A DNA stretch of 64,000 nucleotides from positions 3,904,001 through 3,968,000 of the forward strand of contig CBDFLE010000006.1 in NCBI GenBank assembly GCA_965248925.1, written 5' to 3'. Source of the stretch: Candidatus Multivoradales bacterium. GTDB lineage: Bacteria > Acidobacteriota > Thermoanaerobaculia > Multivoradales > J023. Each line of letters starts with the position of its first letter. Positions within the stretch are counted from its first letter, which is position 1. Made by a program: the position numbers and the translations under genes. The notes below the pieces were generated by a model. That model was not told the DNA's origin. It was given only the letters and a program-made list of their open reading frames with translations, and searched no databases. Of the stretch, positions 35,941 through 60,603 are shown in pieces.

Positions 35941-35990
35941 GTGATTGGACAGACCACTCGTGGCAAAGTCACACCGGCCCCATTGGCCGG

Positions 35991-36213
35991 CTATTGTTTG
36001 ACCGTTTCGCGCAGAAATCCAGTATTAGCGACCGACACCGTCTTGGTCGAGCAGAGTCAAGGTTGGGGTAATCGCTTTCAGCGTGCCGCGCTGGCCTTGA
36101 ATCTCGATTGGCTGACCGATGATAAAGAGCCGGCGGGCGTAGGAACCGTTCAGGATGCTGTGGGTGTCTTCGCGGCCGCAGAGGCCGAAAGACAGCCCGA
36201 AGGCCAACGCCAG
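35991..36213 (-). pseudogene. Degenerate 3' fragment of the mscS/CmpX-like gene (repeat copy 1; left module boundary)
   Basis: LAFGLSFGL...GQPIEIQGQRGTLKAITPTLTLLDQDG matches 61083-61313, with a small deletion. Confidence 0.9.
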
Positions 36214-36227
36214 CGCTTAGAAGGTGA

Positions 36228-36491
36228 AGTTCTTACTATTCCTCCCCCGGCCGTCAGTGAATTACCCACAAGTTCTGACGCTTCAATCATAGCGCAATTT
36301 CTGGGCTTCGCCGTTGGCGCCAGGATCTATAGATCCGGCAATTCAAGCCAATTCTTGGCCAGATGAGGTCCAGTCCATAGATCGACCTGTTGAAACTTGC
36401 TGGTCTGGCGGGCTCAACCTGTGGCCAGGGTGCGGCCCGTGAGTGACGAAGCACCTGCCCTGGTCGCTGCTTCGCAGAATCAAATCGAGGC
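36228..36491 (+). promoter_or_regulatory. Conserved control region (copy A1) upstream of Rhs1 with paired palindromic operator-like sites
   Basis: Colinear with 45037-45300, 46036-46299 and 60340-60603. Perfect palindrome GGATCTATAGATCC at 36323-36336 and a second site 48 bp downstream. Confidence 0.7.
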
Positions 36492-36562
36492 ATCAGGAAC
36501 CAACGCCCGCTATACAGAGTCTAAGAGGACGTGGGTAGCAGCTAGAAACAAGGAGAATTATT

Positions 36563-39500
36563 GTGATCCGATCCATCAGCCTCTTCCTTCTCATCAGTCT
36601 CCTTATCCTTCTAAATCTGCCAGCGGCACTGCAAGCCGGCACCGCCTGCAGCGGCGTCCTCACCTACCTCGAACAAGGATTCTCCGCTGACCAACCCTCG
36701 AACTGCTCCACCGGCTCCCGCTGCTACACGCCGGTCATCTCCGGCGCCACCTTCACCCCCGAGGCTGGCTGCGACCCGGCGATCGAATCCTGCGTCATCA
36801 CCATCGAAGTGCCGATCGACTTCGCCGGCAACCACCAAAACGACCCCAGCGCGTCGGGCTTCCTCTACAGCTTCGCGACCGTCACGGTGACCCCCAGCGG
36901 CGGCGGTACCCTGGGCACCTGCGGCTTGTCGGGCGCGGTGATCGAGGAAGATCACGGCACCTTGAGCTGGGGCATCACCAGTTCTTGCAGCGACCTGATG
37001 GCCAGCTACACCATCACCGCCACCGCCTGCCCTTGTGCCTTCGGCCTCTGTCCCCATTGCCCGAAAGAAACCACCCAAGTAGTCGACTTCAGCCTGTCGC
37101 CCCTCTGCCCACCTCCGCCCCCGCCCAGCGGCTGCCCGGAAGATGAAGATTGCCCCTCGTGCGTCGGTGGTGGCAGCGGAATAGGCGGTAGCGCCGGTGG
37201 TGGAGGCGGAGGCGCCTCGCCGCCGCAGAGCGGCCCCGGCGCCCTACTGCGCTACCACGCGGGAGGCGTTGGCCATCCGACCTACCCCGGCTCAGCCGGC
37301 ATCACCGCCGAGTTGGGGCGCTATTGGAGCCACGATTACGCCGAGAGAATCGCTCGCGACCCCGACGACAGCAACGTCTGGCTGCTCACTCGCTACGCTA
37401 CTTTCCGTCGCTTTACGGACTTGGACATGGATGGGGATTACGACCGCACGATTCCCAGCGATGAGTACCGCACCCTGACCAAGACCCCGACCGGCTGGAC
37501 CCTGCTCGATCTAGACGGCACCCTGATGCAATTCGACAACACCGGCCTATGGTCCTCGACCACCGACCGCAACGGCAACGCCAAGACCGCCAACCGCGAT
37601 GGCACCGGCCGGCTGACCACCGTCAGCTTCCCCGATGGTCGCTCGGAGACCTTCACCTACTCGGTGGGCGGCAGGCTGGACTCGATTACAGAAGTCGGCA
37701 TCGACAGCGCCACCGCCAGAACTTGGGGTTACACCTACACCGGTCAAGACCTCACCCGCATCGACCGACCCGACGGCACCGCCTGGGTTTTCCTCTACGA
37801 TGATCCAACTTTGCCGGGCTACATGACTCGAATGAGTCTGGCGGGTACAGACGCTAGCGAGCGGATCGCGGGCTCCTGGGCCTATGATCCCTTCGGCAAT
37901 GTAGTGCAAATGTGGAAAGGCGCAGCCAACTTCAACGATGCCGGCGCCGTCGATCGCTGGTCGATGAGCTTCGACGATACCCAGCTGCCCATGGTCACCA
38001 CGGTCACCGACCCCATGGGCGAGATCTCCACCTACACTCTGGGTCGCGACTCCGAGAGTCGCAAGCCTCGTCTGGAGCAGCTCGAAGGCTCCTGCCCGAG
38101 CTGCGGCACCGGCCCCAACAGCCGGCTGTTCTATGAAGATCCGGCACACCCCCTGCGGCCCACTCGCCAGATTGACGGCGGCGGCACCACGACGCTAACC
38201 ACCTACGACGCCAACGGCCAAGCAATCTCCCGTGTCGAAGCTCTAGGCACGGCGGAGGAGCGCGAGACCACTTGGCAGCGCGACCTCACCTACCCGGCCC
38301 TGATAACCGAGATCGAGCGCCCCTCGACCACCGGCAACCCTCTAGATTTCCGCCGTACAACCTTCACCCTCAGCGGCCAAGGCAACGCCACTGATCGGAT
38401 CGACGAAGGAGTAGAAGACGGCCAGGTCTTCAGCTACACCACCACGACCACCTACACCGCCGAGGGCCAACCCGAAGACCGCGACCCACCCGGCTACGGC
38501 ACCGCCGATGTCACCACCAGCGCCTGGGACGCTGCCCGTGGCGGCCTGGTGTTGGCCAGTCGCACCGATCCGCTGATCGGCAGCACCCTGTTCGGTTACG
38601 ACCCATTCAACCGCCGAACCTCCGTCACCGACCCCAACGGCGTAGCCAGCGAAACGCAGTACGACCCGCTCAATCGTGTTCTGTTCAGCCTCCAGAAAGG
38701 CGCGGTACCGGCCGAAGACCTGATCACCGAGCAGCGCTACACGGTCTTTGGCGATCTCTTCCAAACCGTCCTGCCGCGCGGCAACGTGATCGAATATTCC
38801 TATGATTCCGCAGGCCGACTTGTCTCGATCGAGCGCAAGCCCGATGACCTGCCCGGCAGCCACGTCGAGCGCACCTTCTACACCCTCGATGGCTTTGGTC
38901 ACCGGGTCCGCGAAGAGCTGCAAGGCTGGGACGGCGCGAGCTGGACGAGTGCGTCGACTACCGACTACCTGTACTCGACCCGCTGCCATCTCGACCAGAT
39001 GATCGAAGGCGCGGGCAGCCCCGAGCAGGCGATCACCGAATATGGCTACAATTGCGATGGCGACCTCGAACGCCTCTGGGACGCGAACCATCCATCGGCG
39101 GGCCAGACTGCGGCAGCCAGCACGGTCTACGGCTACGATCCACTCGACCGATTGACCACGGTCAGCCAGCCATTCGGGGGCGCGGCCGGCGGCCAAGCCG
39201 TGACGACCTACGGCTTTGACGTTCAGGATCATCTGACCACGGTGAGGGACCCAGAGGGCACGGTCACCAGCTACGTCCACAGCGATCGAGATCTGCTGAC
39301 CCGCGAGACCTCCGAGGTTGCCGGCGTGACCAGCCATCTGTACAACGAGCACGGCGAGCGCACAGAGACGACCGATGCACGCAGCATCTCCACCCTGCGC
39401 ACCCTCGATGAGCTGGATCGGGTGACCCTGGTCGACTACCCCGACGACACCCTCGACGTGACCTACACCTACGATGACGCGCTGGTGCCCTTCAGCCTCG

Positions 39501-41332
39501 GCCGGTTGACCCGGATCGAGCGTGACGGTCAGCCGATCGACTACCAATACGATCGATTCGGGCGGATGACTCAAGACGGCGAGCTGGCGTACAGCTTCGA
39601 CACTAACGGCAATAAGAGCGAGATCCTGTACCCTGGTGGGGTGAGAGCGCTCTACGGATTCGATCACGCTGACCGTCACCTGACCCTCGATGCCGAGGTG
39701 CCTGGCCAGGGCATCCAAGTGATCGTCACGGGAGCCCTCTACCAACCCATCGGCCCACTGCGCCACCTGACGCGCGGCAATGGCGTCACCGAAAGCCGCC
39801 AGCACGACAGCCGCTATCAGCCCGCCAGCATCACAGCGGTCGGCCCTGGCAGCACCTTGCTCGACTGGGACTACACCACCGATGGGGTCGGCAACATCAC
39901 CGCCATCGGTGATCTGCTCGATTCGCTGAACAACCGCACCTACGCCTACCAGGACTACCAGTATTTCCTCACCCAGGGCGACGGCCCTTGGGGTGCTCTG
40001 GCCTGGGACTACGACAAAATCGGCAATCGGCTCAGCGAAACGCGGGACGGCGCTACCGACATCTACCAGTACCTCGCCAACGCTGCCGCGAGCGGCAATA
40101 CCGCGAAACTCGACCAGATTGCACTCGGTGCAGGCGGCAGTCGCGTCTACACCTTCGACGCAGCCGGCAACCAGACCGGGGTCGACGAGAACGGCGACCC
40201 CGTGGCTTACACGTTCGATGATGCTGGGCGCCTGTCGGCCATCGACCACCCTTCGGCACAGACCAGCTCGACGATGTTCTACGACGGTCGCAGCTATCTA
40301 CGCCAGGCAGTCGGCCGCGAGCCCGACACTTCGGGCAACGCTCTCTTCTGCGATGGCTTTGAAAGCGGTGACATCAGCGCTTGGGGTGATCCGGGGGCCA
40401 GTAGCTGCACAGCTGAGGCCGTAACCGAAGCGGCCTACAGTTCCGACGGTGTGCTGCAACGGCGAGCCGGTGCCACCGGGGCCAATGCAGTGCTCTACTT
40501 CGGAGGGCAGCCTGTAGCCCAGACCGGTGGGACCGGTGTAACCCACCTCACGGCAGACCATCTTGGCACACCGGTGCTAGCTTCTAGCAGTGTCGGCGGC
40601 TCGAACTGGAGTGGCGGATTCGAGCCCTTCGGCAGTGACTTCGCAAATGCCGAAGACGCAGGCGTTTTCCTGCGCTTTCCGGGGCAGTGGGGGGATCTTG
40701 CTTGGAGCACAGCTGGCGAAACGTTCTTCTACAACGTACACCGCTGGTACGAAGCGGGGGCGGGGCGATATAGCAGAATGGACCCGTTGGCCCCGGTCAA
40801 CACTGCGACCTTCAGTGGATCTCCGTTCGCGGCCGACCTCGAGCAAGCCTATGGCTATGGGAAAATGAACCCGCTGTCCCGGACCGATCCCCTCGGCTTG
40901 AAATCACGAATATGTTGCAGGCAGATTCCGGCGGTACCAGCATCTCACTGCTTCATAGAGATCCAGAGAAACGGGAAAAGTACGAAATGTGGCTTGCAAG
41001 GCGGCCGGTTCTCCCCTGGGGAGAAGCCCGGGACGGGCGCGATCAGAAAAGATCACAGTTTTGACGACCCGAAATTCTCCACCTGTGGCAACTGGGTTGA
41101 GGGGTGTGGCACGGATGAGTGCGTTATCGGGACTGCGGGCAACTATGCTAATCCGAGCAAGTACAACGCTGCAAAAGGCCCGAACAGCAACACGTTCGTG
41201 GGTGTGATTGCTCGGCGGTGCGGCCTCAAGCGACCCGAGGGTGCCGGGTGGACTCGTGGTTGGCGGAGGACAAACCCAGCCCAGAGGAAGAAGGGACTAG
41301 AATCTGAGGTGTCGCCATGCAAGCTTCCGTGA
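36563..41332 (+). CDS. Rhs/YD-repeat polymorphic toxin 1 (signal peptide, Cys-rich N-terminus, papain-like tip)
   Basis: RBS AAGGAG; YD repeats; core HLGTP...LRFPGQW...YNVHRWY...DPLG; tip HCFIE...GPNSNTF. Confidence 0.95.
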   Translation: MIRSISLFLLISLLILLNLPAALQAGTACSGVLTYLEQGFSADQPSNCSTGSRCYTPVISGATFTPEAGCDPAIESCVITIEVPIDFAGNHQNDPSASGFLYSFATVTVTPSGGGTLGTCGLSGAVIEEDHGTLSWGITSSCSDLMASYTITATACPCAFGLCPHCPKETTQVVDFSLSPLCPPPPPPSGCPEDEDCPSCVGGGSGIGGSAGGGGGGASPPQSGPGALLRYHAGGVGHPTYPGSAGITAELGRYWSHDYAERIARDPDDSNVWLLTRYATFRRFTDLDMDGDYDRTIPSDEYRTLTKTPTGWTLLDLDGTLMQFDNTGLWSSTTDRNGNAKTANRDGTGRLTTVSFPDGRSETFTYSVGGRLDSITEVGIDSATARTWGYTYTGQDLTRIDRPDGTAWVFLYDDPTLPGYMTRMSLAGTDASERIAGSWAYDPFGNVVQMWKGAANFNDAGAVDRWSMSFDDTQLPMVTTVTDPMGEISTYTLGRDSESRKPRLEQLEGSCPSCGTGPNSRLFYEDPAHPLRPTRQIDGGGTTTLTTYDANGQAISRVEALGTAEERETTWQRDLTYPALITEIERPSTTGNPLDFRRTTFTLSGQGNATDRIDEGVEDGQVFSYTTTTTYTAEGQPEDRDPPGYGTADVTTSAWDAARGGLVLASRTDPLIGSTLFGYDPFNRRTSVTDPNGVASETQYDPLNRVLFSLQKGAVPAEDLITEQRYTVFGDLFQTVLPRGNVIEYSYDSAGRLVSIERKPDDLPGSHVERTFYTLDGFGHRVREELQGWDGASWTSASTTDYLYSTRCHLDQMIEGAGSPEQAITEYGYNCDGDLERLWDANHPSAGQTAAASTVYGYDPLDRLTTVSQPFGGAAGGQAVTTYGFDVQDHLTTVRDPEGTVTSYVHSDRDLLTRETSEVAGVTSHLYNEHGERTETTDARSISTLRTLDELDRVTLVDYPDDTLDVTYTYDDALVPFSLGRLTRIERDGQPIDYQYDRFGRMTQDGELAYSFDTNGNKSEILYPGGVRALYGFDHADRHLTLDAEVPGQGIQVIVTGALYQPIGPLRHLTRGNGVTESRQHDSRYQPASITAVGPGSTLLDWDYTTDGVGNITAIGDLLDSLNNRTYAYQDYQYFLTQGDGPWGALAWDYDKIGNRLSETRDGATDIYQYLANAAASGNTAKLDQIALGAGGSRVYTFDAAGNQTGVDENGDPVAYTFDDAGRLSAIDHPSAQTSSTMFYDGRSYLRQAVGREPDTSGNALFCDGFESGDISAWGDPGASSCTAEAVTEAAYSSDGVLQRRAGATGANAVLYFGGQPVAQTGGTGVTHLTADHLGTPVLASSSVGGSNWSGGFEPFGSDFANAEDAGVFLRFPGQWGDLAWSTAGETFFYNVHRWYEAGAGRYSRMDPLAPVNTATFSGSPFAADLEQAYGYGKMNPLSRTDPLGLKSRICCRQIPAVPASHCFIEIQRNGKSTKCGLQGGRFSPGEKPGTGAIRKDHSFDDPKFSTCGNWVEGCGTDECVIGTAGNYANPSKYNAAKGPNSNTFVGVIARRCGLKRPEGAGWTRGWRRTNPAQRKKGLESEVSPCKLP

Positions 41333-42604: not shown

Positions 42605-43000
42605 CTAGGCCGCCAGCCGCGCGGCCCTGGACCGTAGCACGTCGCCGGCCTGGTGGTAGCGCATAGCCAACGCGCGGGTGCGGTGCCCGGACAGCTGCAT
42701 GACCTCTTGCAGGCTGACCCAAGCCCGCCCAGCCGAGGTGACAAATCCCGACCTCAACGAATGCCCGCTGTAGTCGGCCGGATCGAGTCCGGTGCGCAGC
42801 GCCCGGTACTTGACGATCTCGGCCAGAGTGCGCGCGGACATGGCGCGGCCGGCGTGTTGGCCATGGCGATCACTCTGCGAAAGATCGCCACGGCCGAGGT
42901 TCCGGCGATCTGGAGCCAAGAATGGAGAGCGTCATGATGTCACTGAGAAAGCCAAATATCGGCATCCACCGGCCCGTGGGCCAGCTTCGCTTGTGGCATC
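42605..43000 (-). pseudogene. Tyrosine recombinase C-terminal relic (copy 1)
   Basis: YSGHSLRSGFVT (HxxR), LSGHRT...RY (H/Y). Frameshifted, N-terminal two thirds missing. Confidence 0.85.
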
Positions 43001-43472: not shown

Positions 43473-45050
43473 CTAGTGCCTCAGGGGCGGGCGGATTCCG
43501 TAGGTCCGTTCGCCTTCTACAGCCTTTCTTGCCGCCTTGATTATCTCGGTGGTCAGCTCGCCTTTGCGCACGAGGCTGGTGAAGTGAGTCACTGCGGCGG
43601 CGGCGATTGCATCGTGGCGGAATGGTTGCAGAAACCTCGCCATTTCTTTCGCGCGCTCTGTAGCCGCTCTTGTCTGGCCGCTGGTGAGCAGCAAATCGAC
43701 GAAATCGAGTGTGGCGAGAGCGGCGCTGAATGGGTCTGTGACGATCAGCCCCTCGATCGCCAGCACTAGGAGTGGCTCAGCGTTGTCAGGTTTCCCGCTG
43801 GCCTTCGCGATCGCTCCGGCCGACCATTGGGCCATCGCTCGTGGGTAAATCGCGTCCTGGGGAATCAGCGCCAGCGCTTGCAGAAGGTATCCCTCGGCCC
43901 GGTCGAATCTCTTGGCCTGCTCATCGATGCTAGCTAGCCCCTGATAGGCTGCCGCTCGGTTGCTCCCCTCGCTATCTGGCAGCAAGGCCAGGGCAGTCCG
44001 ATAGGAATCCGTCGCGGCCGCCGGATCGGGCGCGAGCAAGTACGCGCCTTGGTCTACGAAAACCCTCCCCATGCCTATTCTGTCGCGTTGCGATGCGCAA
44101 ATGGCCATAGCCATATCGGAGACTGTCAAGGCTGCCTCGACTTCGTTGTGGCCGAAGAGGACAACGCTGGTCCTTTGCAGCAAGTCGGCTCTCACCCCTG
44201 GCGGTGCCCAGCATCCGATTACTAAGACTGTCTCCAGGCAGAAGGCGGCGCATTCCAATGAGGCCGCGTGGCGGTGTGCAGAGCCAAGGGCGCCGGCTGC
44301 TCGGCAGAATGCCTCGCCCGCGTCTGGTCCCGTGATCTTGGTGGAGATCTCGACGGCGAGGATCTGCGCTAGCGTTATTGCATCTTTGGGCGCGCGCAGT
44401 CGCAGCTTGTCGATCGCCAGGGCGGCACTCTTGACGCCCGCCAGGCTGCGCCAGCGAGGCTCCACCCGCAGCACCTGCCGGCGGTGGTTGAGTGGCGCGT
44501 GGAGCAAGCAGGCGAAGGCTTCCTCGGTAGTGGGCGCGGAATGTTGCTGGGCCTGGGCTGGGTCCAAGCGGTTGCAAGCGACTTGCCGCGCTGCGGATTG
44601 GAGTCTGAGAATGGCGCTCGGTGGAGTCTTGAGAACGATCTTCGTTGCTTCGCTCTTCGTCTCGGCAGTCTCCGCACCACCCTCGGCCGCTGCCTTGGTC
44701 TTGCCGCTCTGTGTCTCGATCTTGGACTTGGTCTTGATCGTGGGCAGCTTCGCCAGAGTGTCTTGCCGCTTGCCGTGGGTGGCCTCGCGGACTCTGCGGA
44801 GCAGCTCAGCAGGGTCGGGCTTGGTGTTTTCGCTGAGCAGCTCGCCAAGATCGAGGCCCATTCCGCGGGCGCAGGAGAGTAGTTGGTAGCCGGTCAGCTT
44901 GAACACTGGCCGGGTGAGTGCCTCTCGAGTCCAGCCCCGAGCGTGGCCGCTGGCCCGGTCGACAGCAGGTTGGCGGCCGCGGTGCAAAGCGAAGTCGCGG
45001 AGCAGAGCCCGACGCAGCTGCTCAATCCGCTGCTTGTTCTCGCTATTTAT
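43473..45050 (-). CDS. XRE-like HTH + TPR protein (RRNPP-like architecture), copy 1; start codon reads ATA
   Basis: N-terminal RQPAVDRASGHARGWTREAL...YQLLSCARGMGLDLGELL HTH-like segment; C-terminal TPR helices. The frame is open to 45050, where copy 2 has ATG. Confidence 0.7.
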   Translation of the reverse strand: MNSENKQRIEQLRRALLRDFALHRGRQPAVDRASGHARGWTREALTRPVFKLTGYQLLSCARGMGLDLGELLSENTKPDPAELLRRVREATHGKRQDTLAKLPTIKTKSKIETQSGKTKAAAEGGAETAETKSEATKIVLKTPPSAILRLQSAARQVACNRLDPAQAQQHSAPTTEEAFACLLHAPLNHRRQVLRVEPRWRSLAGVKSAALAIDKLRLRAPKDAITLAQILAVEISTKITGPDAGEAFCRAAGALGSAHRHAASLECAAFCLETVLVIGCWAPPGVRADLLQRTSVVLFGHNEVEAALTVSDMAMAICASQRDRIGMGRVFVDQGAYLLAPDPAAATDSYRTALALLPDSEGSNRAAAYQGLASIDEQAKRFDRAEGYLLQALALIPQDAIYPRAMAQWSAGAIAKASGKPDNAEPLLVLAIEGLIVTDPFSAALATLDFVDLLLTSGQTRAATERAKEMARFLQPFRHDAIAAAAVTHFTSLVRKGELTTEIIKAARKAVEGERTYGIRPPLRH

Positions 45051-45300
45051 CCCCCAGGCTCCATTGAATTGATCTCAAGCTCTCGCGCTTCGATCATAGC
45101 GCAATTCCTGGGCTTTCCGGCTGACGCCAAGGTATATAGATCCGGCAGTACAGGTCACTTCTCGGCAAATTGGGGTGCCGTCTATAGATCGATCCGATGA
45201 AACTTGCTGCTCTGGTGGATTCCTTCGCTGACTAAGGTGCGGCCCATGAGTGACAAAACACTGATCCGGGACGCCGCTTCGCGGGATCAAATCGAGGCGA
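45037..45300 (+). promoter_or_regulatory. Divergent control region (copy B1)
   Basis: GGTATATAGATC at 45131 and CGTCTATAGATC at 45179, 48 bp apart. Lies between the HTH-TPR start and the micro-ORFs. Confidence 0.7.
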
Positions 45301-45362
45301 AGGCGCGGGCGCTGATGCTAGGGGTCGCTAGGTGGCTAGCGCGCCGCGGTCGGGGCACATGA
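45246..45362 (+). CDS. 38-aa micro-ORF (MSDKTLIRDAASRDQIEAKARALMLGVARWLARRGRGT)
   Basis: AAGGTG RBS; ATGA overlap with the next ORF; conserved in copy 2. Confidence 0.5.
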   Translation: MSDKTLIRDAASRDQIEAKARALMLGVARWLARRGRGT

Positions 45363-45520
45363 GCGCTCCAGCGGTCGCTCCGATCGTGCTACAGCAGGCC
45401 CGCGCAGCACTGCTTGAAGTCGCGACGCACTTGGTTCAGTTCGGGCTCAAGTCCCTCAGCTTGCTGACTACAGAAAACGCCGCCTCCCTCGCGGACAGTC
45501 GGTCAGCTGGGTGGATATAG
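45359..45520 (+). CDS. 53-aa micro-ORF (MSAPAVAPIVLQQARAALLEVATHLVQFG...)
   Basis: Translationally coupled to the previous ORF; conserved in copy 2. Confidence 0.5.
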   Translation: MSAPAVAPIVLQQARAALLEVATHLVQFGLKSLSLLTTENAASLADSRSAGWI

Positions 45521-45762
45521 GACCGACCGATTTAGGATCTGGCGAGGGAATCAGCCCTCGCTTTGACCCGCGCCGGCTGGCGACCTTCTGCTGTTGGCAG
45601 TTCCCCCTGCCGCGGTCGCTGGTCGGCTGTTTTGTCCGCAGTAAGACTCGAACCAGGGGGCCGCCCTCCAAGTGGGTGGCGTTGGCCCGGCCGGTGGGGT
45701 TCGGAGCGTGAGTGCTTGGACGCTCGCGCTTTCCCCTCACAGCCACCGGCCGGGCTTCTTGT
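45498..45762 (+). ncRNA. Candidate structured RNA (five or six hairpins, G-U pairs favour + strand), copy 1
   Basis: Stems 45542-45561, 45572-45627 (14 bp, three G-U), 45660-45680, 45685-45755 (13 bp perfect plus an inner stem), followed by TTCTTGTT. Confidence 0.5.
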
Positions 45763-45778
45763 TGGGCGTGGCTGCGAC

Positions 45779-46009
45779 TTATTGTTTGACCGCTTCGCGC
45801 AGAAAGACAGTATTGGCGACCGACACCGTCTTGCCGTCTTGGTCGAGCAGGGTCAAGGTTGGAGTGATCGCTTTCAGCGTGCCGCGCTGGCCTTGAATCT
45901 CGATTGGCTGACCGATGATAAAGAGCCGGCGGGCGTAGGAACCGTTCAGGATGCTGTGGGTGTCTTCGCGGCTGCAGAGGCCGAAAGACAGCCCGAAGGC
46001 CAGCGCCAG
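45779..46009 (-). pseudogene. 3' fragment of the mscS/CmpX-like gene (repeat copy 2; junction between modules)
   Basis: LALAFGLSFGL...KTVSVANTVFLREAVKQ* matches the C-terminus of 61083-61904. Confidence 0.9.
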
Positions 46010-46035
46010 CGCTCGCCAGCGCTTAGAAGGTGAAG

Positions 46036-46299
46036 TTCTTACTATTCCTCCCCCGGCCGCCTCTGAAATACCCACAAGCTCTAACGCTTCAATTATAGCG
46101 TAAATTCTGCGGCTTCGCCGTTGGCGCCAGGATGTATAGATCCGGCAATTCAAGCCGGTTTTTTGGCGGGATGAGGTCCGGTCCATAGATCGACCTGTTG
46201 AAACTTGCTGGTCTGGCGGGCTCAACCTGTGGCCAGGGTGCGGCCCGTGAGTGACGAAGCACCTGCCCTAGTCGCTGCTTCGCAGAATCAAATCGAGGC
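46036..46299 (+). promoter_or_regulatory. Control region copy A2 upstream of Rhs2
   Basis: Near-identical to 36228-36491; GGATGTATAGATCC and GTCCATAGATC sites. Confidence 0.7.
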
Positions 46300-46370
46300 A
46301 TCAGGAACCAACGCCCGCTATACAGAGTCTAAGAGGACGTGGGTAGCAGCTAGAAACAAGGAGAATTATT

Positions 46371-49300
46371 GTGATCCGATCCATCAGCCTCTTCCTTCTC
46401 ATCAGTCTCCTTATCCTTCTAAATCTGCCGGCGGCACTGCAAGCCGGCACCGCCTGCAGCGGCGTCCTCACCTACCTCGAACAAGGATTCTTCGCTGACC
46501 AACCCTCGAACTGCTCCACCGGCGCCCGCTGCTACACGCCGGTCATCTCCGGCGCCACCTTCACCCCCGAGGCTGGCTGCGACCCGGCGATCGAATCCTG
46601 CGCCATCACCATCGAAGTGCCGATCGACTTCGCCGGAAACCACCAGAACGACCCCAGCGCGTCGGGCTTCCTCTACAGCTTCGCGACCGTCACGGTGACC
46701 CCCAGCGGCGGCGGTACCCTGGGCACCTGCGGCTTGTCGGGCGCGGTGATCGAGGAAGATCACGGCACCTTGAGCTGGGGCATCACCAGTTCTTGCAGCG
46801 ACCTGATGGCCAGCTACACCATCACCGCCACCGCCTGCCCTTGTGCCTTCGGCCTCTGTCCCCATTGCCCGAAAGAAACCACCCAAGTAGTCGACTTCAG
46901 CCTGTCGCCCCTCTGCCCACCTCCGCCCCCGCCCAGCGGCTGCCCGGAAGATGAAGATTGCCCCTCGTGCGTCGGTGGTGGCAGCGGAATAGGCGGTAGC
47001 GCCGGTGGTGGAGGCGGAGGCGCCTCGCCGCCGCAGAGCGGCCCCGGCGCCCTACTGCGCTACCACGCGGGAGGCGTCGGCCACCCGACCTACCCCGGCT
47101 CGGCCGGCATCACCGCGGAGCTGGGGCGCTATTGGGCCCACGACTACACCGAAAGAATCGCTCGCGACCCCGACGATAGCAACGTCTGGCTGCTCACTCG
47201 CTACGCCACCTTCCGCCGCTTTACCGACCTAAACATGGACGGGGACTACGACCGCACCATTCCCAGCGACGAATACCGCACTCTGACCAAGACCCCGACC
47301 GGCTGGACCCTGCTCGATCTAGACGGCACCCTGATGCAATTCGACGACACCGGCCTATGGTCCTCGACCACCGACCGCAACGGCAACGCCAAGACCGCCA
47401 ACCGCGATGGCACCGGCCGGCTGACCACCGTCAGCTTCCCCGATGGTCGCTCGGAGACCTTCACCTACTCGGTGGGCGGCAGGCTGGACTCGATTACAGA
47501 AGTCGGCATCGACAGCGCCACCGCCAGAACTTGGGGTTACACCTACACCGGTCAAGACCTCACCCGCATCGACCGACCCGACGGCACCGCCTGGGTTTTC
47601 CTCTACGATGATCCAACTTTGCCGGGCTACATGACTCGAATGAGTCTGGCGGGTACAGACGCTAGCGAGCGGATCGCGGGCTCCTGGGCCTATGATCCCT
47701 TCGGCAATGTAGTGCAAATGTGGAAAGGCGCGGCCAACTTCAACGATGCCGGCGCCGTCGATCGCTGGTCGATGAGCTTCGACGATCCCCAGCTGCCGAT
47801 GGTCACCACGGTCACCGACCCCATGGGCGAGATCTCCACCTACACCTTGGGTCGCGACTCCGAGAGCCGCAAGCCTCGTCTGGAGCAGCTCGAAGGCTCT
47901 TGCCCGAGCTGCGGCACCGGCCCCAACAGCCGGCTGTTCTATGAAGATCCGGCCCACCCCCTGCGCCCCACTCGCCAGATCGACGGCGGCGGCACCACGA
48001 CCCTGACCACCTACGACGCCAACGGCCAAGCAATCTCTCGCGTCGAGGCCCTCGGCACGGCGTTGGAGCGCGAGACAACCTGGCAGCGAGATCTCACCTA
48101 CCCGGCGCTGATCACCGAGATCGAGCGCCCCTCGACCACCGGCAACCCTCTAGATTTCCGCCGTACAACCTTCACCCTCAGTGGCCAAGGCAACGCCACC
48201 GACCGCATCGACGAAGGGGTAGAAGACGGCCAAGCCTTCAGCTACACCACCACGACTACTTACACCGCCGAGGGCCAGCCAGAAGATCGCGATCCACCCG
48301 GCTATGGCACCGCCGATGTCACCACCAGCGCCTGGGACGCTGCCCGTGGCGGCCTGGTGCTGGCCAGTCGCACCGATCCGCTGATCGGCAGCACTCTGTT
48401 CGGCTATGACCCTTTCAACCGCCGAACTTCAGTCACCGACCCCAACGGGGTAGCCAGCGAAACGCAGTACGACCCGCTCAATCGTGTTCTGTTCAGCATC
48501 CAGAAAGGCACGGAACTGGCCGAAGACCTGATCACTGAGCAGCGCTACACGGTCTTTGGCGATCTCTTCCAAACCGTCCTTCCGCGCGGCAACGTGCTCG
48601 AATATTCCTACGATTCCGCAGGCCGACTTGCCTCGATCGAACGCAAGCCCGATGACCTGCCCGGCAGCCACATCGAGCGCACCTTCTACACCCTCGATAG
48701 CTTCGGTCACCGGGTTCGCGAAGAGCTACAAAGCTGGGACGGCGCGAGCTGGACGAGTGCGTCGACTACCGATTACCTGTACTCGACCCGCTGTCATCTC
48801 GACCAGATGATCGAAGGCGCGGGCAGCCCCGAGCAGGCGATCACCGAGTACGCCTACAACTGCGATGGTGACATCGAACGCCTCTGGGACGCCAACCATC
48901 CATCGGCGGGTCAATCTGCGCCAGCCAGTACGCTCTACGCCTATGACCCACTCGACCGATTGATCACCGTCAGCCAGCCATTCGGCGGCGCAGCAGGTGG
49001 CCAAGCCGTAACGGCCTACGGCTTTGACGTTCAGGATCATCTGAACACGGTCACTGACCCAGAGGGCACGGTCACCAGCTACGTCCACAGCGATCGAAAT
49101 TTGCTGACCCGCGAGACCTCCGAGGTCTCTGGCGTGACCAACCATCTGTACAACGAGCACGGCGAGCGCACAGAGACGACCGATGCACGCAGCATCTCCA
49201 CCCTGCGCACCCTCGATGAGCTAGATCGGGTCACACTGGTCGACTACCCCGACGACACCCTCGACGTGACCTACACCTACGATGACGCGCTGGTGCCCTT

Positions 49301-51110
49301 CAGTCTCGGCCGACTCACTCAGATCGAACGTGATGGCCAGCCGATCGACTTCCAATACGATCGATTCGGGCGGATGACGCAGGACGGCGAGCTGACCTAC
49401 GCCTTCGACGCCAACGGCAACCAGAGCGAGATCCTGTATCCTGGTGGCGTGAGGGCTATCTACACATTCGATCACGCTGACCGTCACCTGACCCTCGATG
49501 CCGAGGTGCCAGGCCAAGGCATCCAATCGATTGTCACGGGAGCCTTCTACCAACCGATTGGCCCACTGCGCCAGCTGACGCGCGGCAATGGTGTCACCGA
49601 AAGCCGCCAGCACGATAGCCGTTACCGGCCCGCCAGCATCACAGCCGTTGGCCCCGGCGGCACCCTGCTCGACTGGGACTACGCCACCGATGGGGTCGGC
49701 AACATCACCGCCATCGGTGATCTGCTCGACCCGCTGAACAACCGCATTTACGCCCACCAGGATTACCAGTATTTCCTTACCCAGGGCGATGGCCCTTGGG
49801 GCGCTCTGACCTGGGCCTACGACAAAATCGGCAACCGTCTCAGCGAAACGCGGGACGGCGCCACCGACAGCTATCAATACCTCGCCAACGCTGCCGCGAG
49901 CGGCAACACCGCGAAACTCGATCAGATTGCACTCAGTGCAGGCGGCAGTCGTGTCTACACCTTCGACGCAGCCGGCAACCAAATCGGCGTCGACGAGAAC
50001 GGCGACCCCGTGGCTTACACATTCGATGATGCTGGCCGCTTGTCGGCCATTGATCACCCTTCGGCACAGGCCAGCTCGACGATGCTCTACGACGGTCGCA
50101 GCTATCTACGCCAGGCAGTCGGCCGCGAGCCCGACACTTCGGGCAACGCTCTCTTCTGCGATGGCTTTGAAAGCGGCGACATCAGCGCTTGGGGTGATCC
50201 GGGAGCGAGTAGCTGCATGGCCGAGGCAGCTACTTTGGCCACCTACAGTTCCGAAGGTGTCTTGCAGCGGCGGCTCAGCGCAGCAGACGAGAGCGACGTG
50301 CTTTATTTCGATGGGAGGGTCGTGGCGCAGTTCGCTGGCTGGGCGGCAAAACACCTGACCGCTGATCACCTCGGTACGCCAGTACTCGCCTCAGGCGCAG
50401 CCGGAACGGTGAACTGGGTTGGGGGATTCGAGCCCTTTGGCACTGACTATTCAAACGCAGGAGATCAAAGCGTGTTCATTCGGTTCCCTGGCCAGTGGGA
50501 GGATGCGGCTTGGAGAGCTGGCGGCGCCTACTACTACAACGTTCATCGTTGGTACCAACTAGCTTCTGCCAACTACTCACGCGCAGATCCGCTTGGATAT
50601 GAAGGCGGGCCGAATATTCTTGTATATGCAGCAAGTCAACCTCTGAAGTTCTTCGACCCTAAGGGGCTCTCGATTGAACTCTTCTGCCATCCAATCGGCG
50701 CAGGTGGAAATGATCCAATTCGAAAAGCAATTGGTAGACAAGGCTTTGGCCACTGCTTTGTGCGAGTGAAGTGCGACTGTGAAAGCGAAGGGGGGCCATT
50801 TGACCTGAGACTTGAAGTCCGTGGTCGTTCTGGGGGGATGGGCGAGATACCAGAGAGCCCTCCTACTTTTCACCATGGCAGCGCTGCTCAAAGAGTCGCC
50901 TTTCTCCCAGCGGACACCGATAGTTCAGACTGTCAGCGTGAGCAGTGTGTTGTAAAGAAGTATCATGAGATCCGAAAAAATGGGTTCAAGTACCCACTAA
51001 CAGGATTTCTCAATGGACCAAACAGCAACACATTTGCAGCCGATCTTGTAGAGTCGTGCGGAGGCATGAGAATTTTCTGGCCATCTGGCATACCGCCGTT
51101 TACCCCGTAG
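46371..51110 (+). CDS. Rhs/YD-repeat polymorphic toxin 2
   Basis: Near-identical to Rhs1 up to ~50216, then divergent; DPKG cleavage motif; tip GHCFV...GPNSNTF. Confidence 0.95.
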   Translation: MIRSISLFLLISLLILLNLPAALQAGTACSGVLTYLEQGFFADQPSNCSTGARCYTPVISGATFTPEAGCDPAIESCAITIEVPIDFAGNHQNDPSASGFLYSFATVTVTPSGGGTLGTCGLSGAVIEEDHGTLSWGITSSCSDLMASYTITATACPCAFGLCPHCPKETTQVVDFSLSPLCPPPPPPSGCPEDEDCPSCVGGGSGIGGSAGGGGGGASPPQSGPGALLRYHAGGVGHPTYPGSAGITAELGRYWAHDYTERIARDPDDSNVWLLTRYATFRRFTDLNMDGDYDRTIPSDEYRTLTKTPTGWTLLDLDGTLMQFDDTGLWSSTTDRNGNAKTANRDGTGRLTTVSFPDGRSETFTYSVGGRLDSITEVGIDSATARTWGYTYTGQDLTRIDRPDGTAWVFLYDDPTLPGYMTRMSLAGTDASERIAGSWAYDPFGNVVQMWKGAANFNDAGAVDRWSMSFDDPQLPMVTTVTDPMGEISTYTLGRDSESRKPRLEQLEGSCPSCGTGPNSRLFYEDPAHPLRPTRQIDGGGTTTLTTYDANGQAISRVEALGTALERETTWQRDLTYPALITEIERPSTTGNPLDFRRTTFTLSGQGNATDRIDEGVEDGQAFSYTTTTTYTAEGQPEDRDPPGYGTADVTTSAWDAARGGLVLASRTDPLIGSTLFGYDPFNRRTSVTDPNGVASETQYDPLNRVLFSIQKGTELAEDLITEQRYTVFGDLFQTVLPRGNVLEYSYDSAGRLASIERKPDDLPGSHIERTFYTLDSFGHRVREELQSWDGASWTSASTTDYLYSTRCHLDQMIEGAGSPEQAITEYAYNCDGDIERLWDANHPSAGQSAPASTLYAYDPLDRLITVSQPFGGAAGGQAVTAYGFDVQDHLNTVTDPEGTVTSYVHSDRNLLTRETSEVSGVTNHLYNEHGERTETTDARSISTLRTLDELDRVTLVDYPDDTLDVTYTYDDALVPFSLGRLTQIERDGQPIDFQYDRFGRMTQDGELTYAFDANGNQSEILYPGGVRAIYTFDHADRHLTLDAEVPGQGIQSIVTGAFYQPIGPLRQLTRGNGVTESRQHDSRYRPASITAVGPGGTLLDWDYATDGVGNITAIGDLLDPLNNRIYAHQDYQYFLTQGDGPWGALTWAYDKIGNRLSETRDGATDSYQYLANAAASGNTAKLDQIALSAGGSRVYTFDAAGNQIGVDENGDPVAYTFDDAGRLSAIDHPSAQASSTMLYDGRSYLRQAVGREPDTSGNALFCDGFESGDISAWGDPGASSCMAEAATLATYSSEGVLQRRLSAADESDVLYFDGRVVAQFAGWAAKHLTADHLGTPVLASGAAGTVNWVGGFEPFGTDYSNAGDQSVFIRFPGQWEDAAWRAGGAYYYNVHRWYQLASANYSRADPLGYEGGPNILVYAASQPLKFFDPKGLSIELFCHPIGAGGNDPIRKAIGRQGFGHCFVRVKCDCESEGGPFDLRLEVRGRSGGMGEIPESPPTFHHGSAAQRVAFLPADTDSSDCQREQCVVKKYHEIRKNGFKYPLTGFLNGPNSNTFAADLVESCGGMRIFWPSGIPPFTP

Positions 51111-52555: not shown

Positions 52556-52646
52556 AATGTAAACTGAAACTGCCAAAGGGTTGCTGGGGGATGGCGTACG
52601 CCGGGGTGGAATAGGCCTCCGGCGTCCCCTGAACCGGGGACAGGGA

Positions 52647-53729: not shown

Positions 53730-54124
53730 CTACCCAGCCAGCTTCACGGCCCTGGACCGGAGCACGTCGCCGGCCTGGTGGTAGCGCATAGCCAACGCGC
53801 GGGTGCGGTGCCCGGACAGCTGCATGACCTCTTGCAGGCTGACCCAAGCCCGCCCAGCCGAGGTGACAAATCCCGACCTCAACGAATGCCCGCTGTAGTC
53901 GGCCGGATCGAGTCCGGTGCGCAGTGCCCGGTACTTGAGGATTTCGGCCAGAGTGCGCGCGGACATGGCGCGGCCGGCGTGTTGGCCATGGCGATCACTC
54001 TGAGAAAGACCGCCACGGCCGCGGTTCCGGCGATCTGGAGCCAAGAATCGAGAGCGGTGTGATGCCACTGAGAAAGCCAAATATCGGCATCCACCGGCCC
54101 GTGGGTCAGCTTCGCTTGTGGCAT
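53730..54124 (-). pseudogene. Tyrosine recombinase C-terminal relic (copy 2)
   Basis: ALDSWLQIAG...VFLRV / frameshift / DRHG...SGHSLRSGFVT...SGHRT...RY. Confidence 0.85.
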
Positions 54125-56005
54125 CGATCAAACTTTCCCTCTTGAGTGTTAACGAGAATATTCTCTAGCTGCTGGGCAGCTTACCTTGAACTGATCGGCC
54201 CTTCTTATAGCTGGGCCGATTCCATGCCTTCACGATTTCCAACCACCGCGAGCACTTGGCATGCAGCCATGTCTCAGCGGCAACCGTCGATGGGCCTGAC
54301 GCAGTACAAGCGGCGCTGTGGATAACGCTGCTTCGCGCGCCGATCTACTGCCGCCAAAGGCACCCTTGCCACCAAGCCCGCCGCTGGCCACCAAATCCAA
54401 CCTCGCTAGACTGCCCGCTTACAGGCCGCTCGTTGCGAGCAATGACGCCCGCGACGCGGTGGCCGGGGGTAATCTGTGATGCCAACCAAGACAGTCGCAC
54501 AACCGACTCTGAATCCTTGGAGCAACGGCAGCGAACCGAGCGGCTTCCGCAGCGTGATCAAGCCAAGCGGCTGGAGCACCGCGATCTTGCCGAACGGCTA
54601 GTGCCTCAGGGGCGGGCGGATTCCGTAGGTCCGTTCGCCTTCTACAGCCTTTCTTGCCGCTTTGATTATCTCGGTGGTCAGCTCGCCTTTGCGCACGAGG
54701 CTGGTGAAGTGAGTCACTGCGGCGGCGGCGATTGCATCGTGGCGGAATGGTTGCAGAAACCTCGCCATTTCTTTCGCGCGCTCTGTAGCCGCTCTTGTCT
54801 GACCGCTGGTGAGCAGCAAATCGACGAAATCGAGTGTGGCGAGAGCGGCGCTGAATGGGTCTGTGACGATCAGCCCCTCGATCGCCAGCACTAGGAGTGG
54901 CTCAGCGTTGTCAGGTTTCCCGCTGGCCTTCGCGATCGCTCCGGCCGACCATTGGGCCATCGCTCGTGGGTAAATCGCGTCCTGGGGAATCAGCGCCAGC
55001 GCTTGCAGAAGGTATCCCTCGGCCCGGTCGAATCTCTTGGCCTGCTCATCGATGCTAGCTAGCCCCTGATAGGCTGCCGCTCGGTTGCTCCCCTCGCTAT
55101 CTGGCAGCAAGGCCAGGGCAGTCCGATAGGAATCCGTCGCGGCCGCCGGATCGGGCGCGAGCAAGTACGCGCCTTGGTCTACGAAAACCCTCCCCATGCC
55201 TATTCTGTCGCGTTGCGATGCGCAAATGGCCATAGCCATATCGGAGACTGTCAAGGCTGCCTCGACTTCGTTGTGGCCGAAGAGGACAACGCTGGTCCTT
55301 TGCAGCAAGTCGGCTCTCACCCCTGGCGGTGCCCAGCATCCGATTACTAAGACTGTCTCCAGGCAGAAGGCGGCGCATTCCAATGAGGCCGCGTGGCGGT
55401 GTGCAGAGCCAAGGGCGCCGGCTGCTCGGCAGAATGCCTCGCCCGCGTCTGGTCCCGTGATCTTGGTGGAGGTCTCGACGGCGAGGATCTGCGCTACGGA
55501 ATGTGTCAATGAAAGTGAGACACTTTCTTCTGGGAATTAGTACGGAATCGGTAGTGGCTCCGGCACCATCGCTTTCAGCGAGGGCGCGCAGCCAGGGGTC
55601 TCGCCTGGTGCGTCGTTGTGTACGCGGTGTGTCACTACGTTCTCGGTATCGACTGGGTCAGTGCTGGCGGCGGTGGTCGGCGGGTTGATCCAGACCTTGT
55701 CACTGGGCTCCGGCAAAGCCGGCGCTCGCCGCTTGAAGCGGCTTGGATGAGCGGCTGAGGCGGCGGCGAGGACTTCTCGACGTTGCTCCAGTACTGAGGC
55801 CGTGAGGCCGTAGTGGACGGTCTCTGGCGTCAACAAGCCGAGTCCTGTGTGGTAGTGCTGCGTGTTGTACCAGCCGATGAACGAGCGGCAGAATGCTCGT
55901 GCATCTTCCAGTGATCCGAAGCGGTCGGGAAAGCTCGGATGGTACTTGAGCGTCTTGAACTGGGCCTCAGAGAACGGATTGTCGTTGCTCGTGTAGGGCC
56001 GGTTC

Positions 56006-58534: not shown

Positions 58535-60339
58535 GGTTCAGCGACCGTGTCATCCCGAGATCGGCCAGCAGTAGAGCCACTGGCTTGGATGTCATGCTCG
58601 AACCGCGGTCCGAGTGCAAGGTAAGTCGATCTCGCTCAACACCTTGCTTCTCAACACTGTCGGCGATCAACCGCTTCGCGAGCCCTCCGGACTCGCGGCA
58701 GGCGAGCATCCAGCCGACGATGTAGCGGCTGAAGACGTCCAGAATTACGTAAAGGTAGTAGTGGGTCCACTTCACCGGGCCCTTGAGCTTGGTGATGTCC
58801 CACGACCACACCTCGTTCGGCCCTGTGGCCAGCAGTTCGGGCTTGGTGTAGTTGGGATGACGCCGCTGACGGCGTCGCTCGCGCAGCTCGCCCTCAGACT
58901 CCAGGACCCGGTACATGGTGCGCACCGAGCAGATATGGCGCTGATCCTCGTCCAGCAGCGCCGCCCAGACTTGACGCGGCGAGCGGTCGACGAAGCGCTC
59001 CGAGTGCAACACATCGAGGACCTCCTGGCGTTCAGCGGGCGTCAATGCCAGCGGCGGTCGAGGCCGCGTTGATAGCTGCGGCCCTGCGCTCTGCTGCCGA
59101 CGGCGGCGATAGAAAGTGGCTCTGGGGACCGCCAAGGCGACGCAGGCTGCTTGCACCCCCACCGTCTCGGCCAGCGGCGCCACAGCGCTCATGGCTGGCT
59201 CTCGCTCGGCTCGATCCCTAGCAGCCGGGAAAGTTTTTTTTGGACATCGATGATCGTCTCGGCTTTGTACAGCTGATGCTTGAGCCGGGCATTCTCACGC
59301 TCAAGCTCCGCGACGCGGCGGGCCTCGGCAGAGACCGGTCGACGCTTGCGACCGCGCTTCTTCGACAGACCGGCCAGAGCTCCCGTGTCGCGCTGACGGC
59401 GCCACGTCGACAGTAGCGAGGAATACAGACCCTCCTGGCGAAGCAGGGCGCCAATCTCGCCGGGCTTGCTACAGGCGTCGGCGGCCTGGACGATGCGCAG
59501 CTTGTACGACGCGCTGTACCGCCGCCGCTTCGCCTTCTCAGCTACCTCGGGATCTGGTCGGTCAGCACCCATATCTCGCAGCTCGTGGCTTGGACTCGCC
59601 ATGGTGATTGCTCTCCACACCCTCACTAATTTCTCGGTACTTGAGTGTCTCACTTACATTGGCACAGAGGGATCGCGCTATTGCATCCTCGGGTGCGCGC
59701 AGTCGCAGCTTGTCGATCGCCAGGGCGGCACTCTTGACGCCCGCCAAGCTACGCCAGCGAGGCTCCACCCGCAGCACCTGCCGGCGGTGGTTGAGTGGCG
59801 CGTGGAGCAAGCAGGCGAAGGCTTCCTCGGTAGTGGGCGCGGAATGTTGCTGGGCCTGGGCTGGGTCCAAGCGGTTGCAAGCGACTTGCCGCGCTGCGGA
59901 TTGGAGTCTGAGAATGGCGCTCGGTGGAGTCTTGAGAACGATCTTCGTTGCTTCGCTCTTCGTCTCGGCAGTCTCCGCACCACCCTCGGCCGCTGCCTTG
60001 GTCTTGCCGCTCTGTGTCTCGATCTTGGACTTGGTCTTGATCGTGGGCAGCTTCGCCAGAGTGTCTTGCCGCTTGCCGTGGGTGGCCTCGCGGACTTTGC
60101 GGAGCAGCTCAGCAGGGTCGGGCTTGGTGTTTTCGTTGAGCAGCTCGCCAAGATCGAGGCCCATTCCGCGGGCGCAGGAGAGTAGTTGGTAGCCGGTCAG
60201 CTTGAACACTGGCCGGGTGAGTGCCTCCCGAGTCCAGCCCCGAGCGTGACCGCTGGCCCGGTCGACAGCAGGTTGGCGGCCGCGGTGAAAAGCGAAGTCG
60301 CGGAGCAGGGCCCGACGCAGCTGTTCAATCCGCTGCTTG

Positions 60340-60603
60340 TTCTCGCTATTCATCCCCCAGGCTCCATTGAATTGATCTCAAGCTCTCGCGCTTCGATCAT
60401 AGCGCAATTCCTGGGCTTTCCGGCTGACGCCAAGGTATATAGATCCGGCAGTACAGGTCACTTCTCTGCAAAATGGGGTGCCGTCTATAGATCGATCCGA
60501 TGAAACTTGCTGCTCTGGTGGATTCCTTCGCTGACTAAGGTGCGGCCCATGAGTGACGAAACACTGATCTGGGACGCCGCTTCGCGGGATCAAATCGAGG
60601 CGA
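60340..60603 (+). promoter_or_regulatory. Divergent control region copy B2
   Basis: Near-identical to 45037-45300. Confidence 0.7.

Follow-up and report, generated by a model that had tools for sequence, protein, structure and literature searches.

Loci for Rhs ("rearrangement hot spot") and other polymorphic toxins are known for recombination-driven duplication and orphan cassettes, and to our knowledge little has been recorded on the regulation of their toxin genes beyond a few model proteobacteria. Among regulators with a comparable architecture, RRNPP systems (PlcR, NprR, Rap, AimR) are assigned in a passage of one published account to Gram-positive Firmicutes and their mobile elements (PMC10075063). 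Here we describe a locus of the acidobacterium Candidatus Multivoradales bacterium (GenBank assembly GCA_965248925.1) at which recombination joined a piece of another module's putative control region to two Rhs genes. The window is the whole stretch of DNA that we analyzed, 64,000 nt of contig CBDFLE010000006.1 (forward-strand positions 3,904,001 to 3,968,000), and coordinates are counted from its first letter unless preceded by the label of a genomic contig (C3, C5 or C6). The element in question is a 263-nt segment. From its sequence, we best read it as promoter/operator DNA belonging to a lineage-specific accessory module, the regulator of which combines a helix-turn-helix (HTH) domain with tetratricopeptide repeats (TPR).

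A repeat search recovered the 263-nt segment four times on the plus strand: as A1 (36229..36491) and A2 (46037..46299), two truncated copies located 5' of Rhs1 and Rhs2, respectively, and as B1 (45036..45298) and B2 (60339..60601). The B copies form the divergent intergenic region between a gene for an XRE-like HTH and TPR regulator and a four-gene operon (ORF1-4), of which an ORF1 remnant survives beside B1. With B2 as the BLAST query, the whole genome (7.98 Mb, 6 contigs) returned only these four copies. An earlier note on this DNA had described a control region of ~260 bp in four copies, the one 5' of each Rhs gene being a diverged, near gap-free homolog of the regulator/ORF1 intergenic DNA with decayed starts of both flanking genes, and this description was borne out. 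A1 and B1 are identical at 197 of 263 positions with zero gaps, and A2 has two 1-nt insertions; across the intergenic part, B1 matches B2 at 193 of 195 positions and A1 matches A2 at 179 of 197. At the position of the regulator start codon B2 reads CAT, B1 reads TAT and both A copies read CCT. The ORF1 start is ATG in the B copies and GTG in the A copies, followed by homologous codons for the first 18 positions of ORF1 (36439..36492, plus strand, in A1), where the homology to B ends. Short-read DNA contigs from one sample, probably that of the assembly and not independent of it, reproduce A1, A2 and B1 locally with 0 differences over stretches that include 36224-36402, 46030-46210 and 43336-45719.

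Each copy carries a pair of ATAGATC boxes, which start at 36329 and 36377 in A1, 45136 and 45184 in B1 (45136-45142 and 45184-45190), 46136 and 46185 in A2, and 60439 and 60487 in B2 (60439-60445 and 60487-60493). The spacing is thus 48, 48, 49 and 48 nt, respectively. Site 1 of A1 is GGATCTATAGATCC (36323..36336; 7/7 pairs), the perfect 14-bp palindrome that the note had reported, with its ATAG core 110 nt before the decayed ORF1 start. Site 2 of A1 is the box CATAGATC (36376..36383, plus strand), 62 nt before the same start. In A2 the two sites are GGATGTATAGATCC (46130-46143) and the box at 46185-46191. The note had taken the pair as two palindromes per copy, 48 bp apart; the paired boxes and their spacing stand, but palindromy is not general and is not significant at site 1 of B1 and B2. 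The two A copies also differ from each other by ~15% in a patch of ~120 nt (36290-36350 versus 46098-46160), bounded by the decayed regulator start and the bases just ahead of site 2, with flanks at least 98% alike on either side. Gene conversion of the flanks, or copying from a donor since lost, could account for the patch. In A2 alone, the stretch between the boxes contains a GC hairpin of 5 bp with TTTTTT directly after it (46142-46158, plus strand). This terminator-like structure results from a 1-nt insertion and a few substitutions with respect to A1.

The junctions of the A copies point to how they reached the Rhs genes. On the right, similarity to B stops at ...CAAATCGAGGC, after the first 18 codons of ORF1; on the left, the segment begins at regulator codon 5, directly against a 250-nt 3' fragment of a mechanosensitive-channel-like gene. 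Microhomology amounts to at most ~1 nt at either junction, and both therefore look illegitimate. The channel gene is represented three times on the minus strand: by the full-length gene (61083..61904), by a 3' fragment (a) joined to A1 at regulator codon 5 (35964..36228), and by a 3' fragment (b) (45760..46036) whose left part agrees with the full gene, an 8-nt indel included, and whose right part agrees with fragment (a). Such a recombinant of (a) with the full gene is the hallmark of unequal crossing-over, and the 3' 250 nt of the channel gene is the repeat behind the tandem duplication. In the path that these features trace, a 263-nt piece with one end at codon 5 of the regulator gene and the other at codon 18 of ORF1 was placed by two illegitimate junctions between the channel-gene 3' fragment and the Rhs leader, and a 9.8-kb unit was later duplicated in tandem by unequal crossing-over between the 250-nt channel-gene repeats. 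As a structural fact, the capture of the module's switch by the toxin gene suggested in the earlier note is confirmed: foreign regulatory DNA is fused to the Rhs leader and was co-duplicated with it.

Two other readings of the locus were considered and dropped. Site-specific integration into a channel gene with a diverged native 3' end does not agree with 3' copies that are ~94-96% alike (allowing for the 8-nt indel) or with the recombinant nature of fragment (b), and unequal crossing-over explains the array. The tyrosine recombinase sequences of the locus are C-terminal fragments, one at 42605..42919 (minus strand; repeat D5) and a homologous one at 53730..54131 (minus strand) that matches PF00589 slightly below the cut-off of 27.1 bits (26.7 bits, E 5.4e-6). 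The ORFs have 104 and 133 aa, and the match spans only the last ~70 profile positions (100-167 of 172), short of a complete catalytic domain. A T-arm-like string seen by eye near 45640-45720 was likewise rejected as a tRNA remnant, since a tRNA search of the window returned none and no Rfam family scored above threshold in 33000-64000. The latter search gave a sub-threshold match to the Acido-Lenti-1 RNA at 33830-33876 (minus strand; 31.9 bits against a gathering threshold of 37, E 0.0011).

The control region belongs to a module with at least nine copies in the source genome. Outside the array we refer to these as P1 (C6:3821932), P2 (C6:3817833), P3 (C6:620394 / 622472), P4 (C3:3841-5421), P5 (C6:2647785), P6 (C6:2651069) and P7 (C6:616575). 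Regulator and ORF1 are arranged divergently in P1 to P5, and ORF1 lacks an adjoining regulator gene in P6 and P7. In P4, an intact copy, the regulator gene faces ORF1 (134 aa) and three more ORFs, with a resolvase, a Tn3 transposase and an Rhs gene 3' of them. The contig that carries P4 (C3, 48.9 kb) is plasmid-like, with DnaB-like and ParA-like genes, the resolvase, the Tn3 transposase and two Rhs genes; the region 5' of its Rhs gene at C3:12675 is identical to that at C5:1668166 over the 360 nt compared. P7 (C6:616200-616620) is an orphaned copy of the control region that retains part of ORF1; transcribed divergently from it is a STAND-like gene (adenylate/guanylate cyclase-AAA-TPR, 1403 aa) whose start codon overlaps a CATAGAT box.

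The module appears confined to this lineage. A word-index search with the P4 regulator matched only proteins of the source genome, and a profile search of 1.84 billion representatives returned full-length matches from the source genome only, the TPR part alone having 3583 relatives at E <= 0.001. No match was obtained when metagenome and genome contigs were scanned with the regulator alignment or metagenome contigs with the ORF1 alignment, and ORF1 was found in 0/400 other genomes of the phylum sample. Two ORF4 relatives from JGI metagenomes are on contigs of 1.1-1.4 kb, too short to include a control region. ORF1-4 matched no family in Pfam, PHROGs or PADLOC (0 families) and gave only noise far below cut-off in NCBIfam; their best ESM Atlas scores were 0.77 and 0.75, with a RadC-carrying cluster as a weak lead only. 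The two small ORFs next to B1, the micro-ORFs of the earlier note, turned out to be remnants of longer genes. Micro-ORF 1 (45246..45362, plus strand; 38 aa) keeps the N-terminus and a C-terminal stretch of ORF1 (VARWLARRG versus VESWLSRRG) with the middle deleted, and micro-ORF 2 (45359..45520, plus strand; 53 aa) is what is left of the N-terminus of ORF3. Their alignment scores to ORF1 and ORF3 were reached in 2/500 and 4/500 shuffles, respectively, and in intact copies ORF1 has 134-140 aa and ORF3 has 177 aa.

The paralogs allowed us to separate the boxes from their surroundings, which the A and B copies alone did not. Both boxes sit inside fully conserved A/B runs, of 13 and 9 nt, as expected from the note's remark that the best-conserved blocks include ATAGATC. 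However, A and B share nine conserved runs of at least 7 nt, the longest of which (14 nt) is not at a box, and shuffled mismatch positions give a mean of 8.6 such runs and a probability of 0.81 for a longest run of at least 13 nt. Because the run counts match the shuffles, the A-versus-B comparison by itself reveals no special constraint on the boxes. The picture changes with distance to ORF1. All 11 of the copies compared (A1 and A2 included) carry an element 109-111 nt ahead of the ORF1 ATG, with the ATAG core in 9/11; P4 has ATCTAGAT at this position and P2 has ATGGAT. We also ran an unbiased 4-mer scan from -260 to -21 on six lineage representatives (B1, P1, P3, P4, P5 and P7). ATAG at -111 to -109 was the sole 4-mer whose position was kept (within 2 nt) in 5/6 lineages, and 0/200 shuffles reached 5. 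Thus, site 1, a TATAG/CTAG box, is the single upstream element with a conserved position across the six paralog lineages. Its position is held although intergenic identity between clades is 50-58%, near the aligner's level for unrelated DNA; P1, for example, has boxes at -110 and -62 despite 58% intergenic identity to B1. Site 1 is probably the operator of the module, and the fixed distance of the boxes to ORF1 suggests that they control an ORF1-ward promoter.

Symmetry at site 1 was significant in three of the eight copies tested: A1 (7/7 pairs, reached by 8/1000 shuffles), P4 (14/15 pairs over 30 bp, 0/1000) and P7 (8/9 pairs, 20/1000). The outer arms differ among paralogs yet remain symmetric (GGATC...GATCC; GGGCAT...ATGCCC; CCCCTTGCTG...CAGCAAGGGG), a pattern that suits a dimeric DNA-binding protein of diverged specificity, and the boxes of P1 read better as direct repeats (CGAGG-N3-GATAGAT twice). 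Site 2 (-62) is confined to the B and A copies, P1 and P2. Genome-wide, same-strand ATAGAT pairs 30-70 nt apart number nine, five of which come from the control-region family and are all spaced by 48 or 49 nt; there is no wider regulon of such pairs.

The protein that we predict to bind the boxes is encoded on the minus strand, in 526 codons. Regulator gene 1 (43473..45050) has ATA as its native start, and between it and the in-frame stop upstream there is no alternative start. In regulator gene 2, ~4.1 kb of nested insertion sequence (IS) elements (55510..59651), an IS3-family element interrupted by a Transposase_29 element (56116-58509), split the gene after ~residue 226; the N-terminal part of gene 2 (59652..60353, minus strand) has an intact ATG and its C-terminal part (54598..55509, minus strand) comprises residues 228-527. 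The same IS3-family element (154-aa OrfA, identical Pfam scores) interrupts two paralogs, regulator gene 2 and P3 (C6:620394). An AlphaFold2 (AF2) model of the regulator (mean predicted local distance difference test score 89) shows a TPR domain (145-515) that a disordered linker (100-139) joins to an N-terminal domain of 5-6 helices (1-92). Pfam gave no HTH match on the window or P4 regulators and matched TPR_12/TPR_MalT on the window regulator below cut-off. The N-terminal domain does align column for column with relatives that match Pfam HTH_31/HTH_3 (4/25 homologs scanned). Fold comparisons of the TPR domain retrieved phi105 Rap (Z 20.6), NprR (17.6), MalT domain III (16.8), PlcR (15.1) and AimR (13.3), with unrelated TPR proteins (APC/C, LGN) scoring as high as Rap, NprR, PlcR and AimR, and Foldseek with the whole model returned generic TPR proteins only. 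The modeled N-terminal domain, its alignment to HTH_31/HTH_3 and the TPR fold make the earlier note's HTH-TPR label reasonable, and support an XRE-like HTH and TPR make-up of the neighboring protein.

The Rhs genes contribute a leader of their own to the fusion. Rhs1 (36563..41332, plus strand; 1589 aa) has a signal-peptide-like N-terminus and RHS repeats, and both Rhs1 and Rhs2 (46371..51110, plus strand; 1579 aa) match PF05593 RHS_repeat (E 5.7e-31 and 5.1e-34, respectively). Their N-terminal 400 aa are 98% identical and their C-terminal ends differ, which fits Rhs/YD-repeat polymorphic toxins. The leader, ~70 nt long, begins 4 nt after the junction, with GGAACC at its very start, and is ~95% shared with the Rhs loci at C6:2553436 and C3:44650, where the DNA farther upstream is unrelated. 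At its start we identified GGAAC-N18-GTCTAA (36496..36524 for Rhs1 and 46304..46332 for Rhs2, both plus strand), a candidate promoter of the type used by extracytoplasmic function (ECF) sigma factors; we infer the role of GTCTAA as the -10 element, and the use of an ECF sigma factor, from the sequence. The motif occurs 10 times in the genome against ~9 expected by a composition estimate. Four occurrences are at Rhs loci, and four of the six others lie within ~100 nt (64-103 nt) upstream of co-oriented ORFs. These ORFs encode a Big_9 protein, a TPR protein, TonB and ExbB/ExbD (C6:4023554, C5:439254, C6:1395293 and C6:2866594), and the sites may represent an envelope-type regulon that shares its promoter with some Rhs genes. 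Two genes from the array, beside the channel gene, is an ECF sigma gene (62231-62848, minus strand), whose 212 nt of upstream DNA showed no GGAAC..GTCTAA.

Other Rhs loci of the genome also have regulators of this general kind nearby. An HTH/TPR gene lies directly upstream and co-oriented at 5/12 Rhs loci, Rhs1 and Rhs2 not being among the five; four of these genes are XRE-like (L028-L031) and one is AraC-like (L033). Among HTH/TPR genes of relatives, with 1.5 kb of flank per locus, an Rhs-like stretch was found at 1/19 other-genome loci (L019), too thin a record to generalise. A second type of Rhs leader, at C6:778070, C6:3160856, C6:3025256 and C5:276038 (L028-L032), has a nested palindrome, CAGAGAATCAC ... 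AGAGATTAATCTCT ... GTGTATTCTCTGG, that is perfect at two loci and degenerate at two; a co-oriented HTH-TPR gene precedes three of them. Downstream (3') of the window Rhs genes are duplicated small lipoprotein-like ORFs (D6/D7, 72-86% identical) and PEGA-domain ORFs (52208-52555, 53268-53618, 52581-52988 and 41317-41925), which are probably immunity or orphan cassettes.

In the model that we favor, the boxes would be operators of the HTH-TPR protein, and the module operator and an ORF1-ward promoter region would lie ~130-240 nt ahead of the start of each Rhs gene. With the operator region placed in series with the Rhs motif, read-through into the toxin gene or operator-dependent control by an HTH-TPR protein is possible. 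We put the probability of the model as a whole, some effect on Rhs now or in the recent past included, at roughly 0.5; regulation of Rhs through the A copies is, within it, possible but unproven. Several observations weigh against the model. The Rhs genes appear to have a promoter of their own, GGAAC-N18-GTCTAA at the start of the leader, and with this conserved motif may not need the A region. The A boxes would lie ~150-200 nt upstream of the start of that putative promoter, far for a simple repressor, and a consensus scan for sigma-70-like promoters found 0 sites in the A and B regions, so that no promoter could be placed there by consensus. Both neighboring regulator genes are damaged, gene 1 by its ATA start and gene 2 by IS elements. 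At the boxes themselves, the A-versus-B comparison lacks a box-specific conservation signal (9 runs against 8.6 expected), site 2 was not seen outside the B/A/P1/P2 clade, and palindromy at site 1 was not significant in five of the eight copies tested (B1, P1, P3, P5 and P6). Furthermore, most module copies have decayed through IS insertions, frameshifts or truncations: an IS insertion breaks ORF1 in P1 and the regulator in P3, the P2 regulator has a frameshift at codon 6 (read by eye) and the P5 regulator is truncated at 183 aa. The orphaned region of P7 adjoins an unrelated cyclase/STAND gene, indicating that such relics also arise without Rhs. Finally, the searches turned up no orthologous module elsewhere, which limits every comparison made here to paralogs within the source genome. 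The earlier note had gone further and proposed that the HTH-TPR protein co-regulates the toxin, the micro-ORFs and itself. Given the remnant state of the micro-ORFs, the limited palindromy, the Rhs genes' own leader and the damaged regulators, co-regulation is better regarded as a hypothesis than as something the sequence implies.

Many of the same observations would be expected if A1 and A2 were recombination scars, that is, functionless leftovers of a destroyed module copy whose boxes have not yet decayed, with Rhs driven only by GGAAC-N18-GTCTAA. We consider this quite conceivable, if short of even odds. The Rhs leader, common to three independent contexts, begins exactly at GGAACC 4 nt past the junction, and the motif precedes co-oriented ORFs in 4/6 of its other genomic matches. 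Box conservation between A and B no higher than chance clustering, a module decaying genome-wide with an orphan beside an unrelated gene in P7, and damage to both adjoining regulator genes all agree with a scar, as does the divergence of ~15% between the left halves of A1 and A2, which extends to the palindrome's left arm. Other features speak against a scar. The retained piece is almost exactly the intergenic region, flanked by 5 codons of the regulator gene and 18 of ORF1, and A1 is free of indels relative to B at 75% identity (25% divergence). Site 1 is a perfect palindrome in A1, better than in the B copies, and TATAGATCCGGCAATTCAAGCC is unchanged inside the diverged A1/A2 patch. The first three of these features argue for a dependence of Rhs on A, as does the recurrence of HTH/TPR genes beside Rhs genes, which also speaks against a mere leftover.

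What the boxes are is a separate question from whether they still matter to Rhs. Rather than HTH-TPR operators, the ATAGAT boxes might be core promoter elements, sites for another factor (a nucleoid protein, the element's recombinase or an accessory factor) or a GATC-methylation-sensitive switch; we regard this whole group of readings as improbable. TATA is rare in the genome (2209 sites), and TATA-containing intergenic boxes could thus be melting or -10-like elements, but none of the hexamers within or overlapping the boxes combines two -10 hallmarks, A in second and T in sixth position, and the promoter scan gave 0 promoters. Also in favor of these readings, the boxes of P1 are direct repeats and not palindromes, and each unit contains a recombinase fragment. 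Yet the recombinase is a fragment, and P4, with the strongest palindrome, has no adjoining tyrosine recombinase. Similarly, the 5 GATC in 195 nt of B and a D12-class methyltransferase match in the genome could be taken for a methylation switch, but GATC occurs once per 121 nt genome-wide, making the excess weak, and the only D12 match covers 77/253 profile positions. Still less probable, to the point of being hardly credible, is that the palindromes are RNA or DNA hairpins, for example in the leader of the ORF1 or regulator mRNA, and not protein sites. Arms that differ among paralogs yet stay complementary in A1, P4 and P7 are what a hairpin would give, and A2 has its hairpin and T-run between the boxes. 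However, the conserved part is the center (TATAG) and not the stem, 5/8 copies have no significant stem, Rfam has no match here and no T-run follows the palindrome of P4.

Whichever account applies to Rhs, the locus is a traceable route for a toxin gene to gain foreign regulatory DNA, through illegitimate junctions and then tandem duplication. If the boxes are true operators, the paralogs supply regulator/operator pairs whose specificities have diverged, a natural series suited to the study of circuit insulation. It is also thinkable, though unlikely, that we are dealing with a lineage-specific, expanded XRE-HTH and TPR family of RRNPP-like architecture, outside Firmicutes and wired to Sec-exported Rhs toxins. 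Such a gene would then serve five of the 12 Rhs loci from directly upstream and the captured operator region two more, and the paralogs' operators would share a TATAG center but differ in their symmetric arms. If the TPR domains of this family respond to a signal, that signal would gate toxin expression, and the A copies would illustrate how the copying of only 263 nt of operator DNA can connect a toxin gene to a circuit of this kind. Should the A copies be nothing but scars, they would still mark a clear but ordinary case of Rhs-locus rearrangement.

Compared with RRNPP regulators, the window protein appears to have the same order of domains, a probable N-terminal XRE-like HTH followed by a TPR domain of ~370 residues, and its TPR fold matches phi105 Rap, NprR, PlcR, RapI/RapH and AimR at Z 13-21. 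The module also has the divergent neighbor gene and a palindrome-like intergenic box. It departs from RRNPP systems in that generic TPR proteins (APC/C, LGN) match its regulator equally well, that a 40-residue disordered linker separates HTH from TPR, and that its small neighboring ORFs are gene remnants and not propeptide genes; no propeptide gene was seen beside the intact P4, and ORF1 (134 aa) has no secretion signal by eye. RRNPP systems are ascribed to Gram-positive hosts, and the source genome carries TonB/ExbBD genes and DUF481. Prophage and integrative-element switches of the cI/Cro type offer another parallel, with an HTH regulator divergent from an operon and more than one operator-like box in an intergenic region of ~200 nt, and the module is likewise tied to a tyrosine recombinase fragment, IS elements and plasmid-like contexts. 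In contrast to those switches, its regulator is a protein of 526 aa with a large TPR domain, its boxes are direct ATAGAT repeats in some copies, and phage or conjugation genes were not recognized among ORF1-4 by PHROGs and PADLOC (0 families).

For ECF promoters, a gap of 18 nt between -35 and -10 is at the long end of the range. The Rhs leader nonetheless resembles them in opening with GGAACC and continuing with GTCTAA 18 nt on, the -35 element of E. coli sigma-E promoters (GGAAC) being given in a passage of one source as GGAACTT (PMC3326320). A further parallel is with Rhs hot-spot loci: two Rhs cores that are 98% identical have different C-termini, homologous recombination has produced a tandem array, and small ORFs and duplicated lipoprotein-like ORFs lie downstream. 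Unlike in those loci, the duplication in the window proceeded via a neighboring channel-gene fragment and not the Rhs core, and recombination also brought a foreign regulatory region upstream of the toxin gene.

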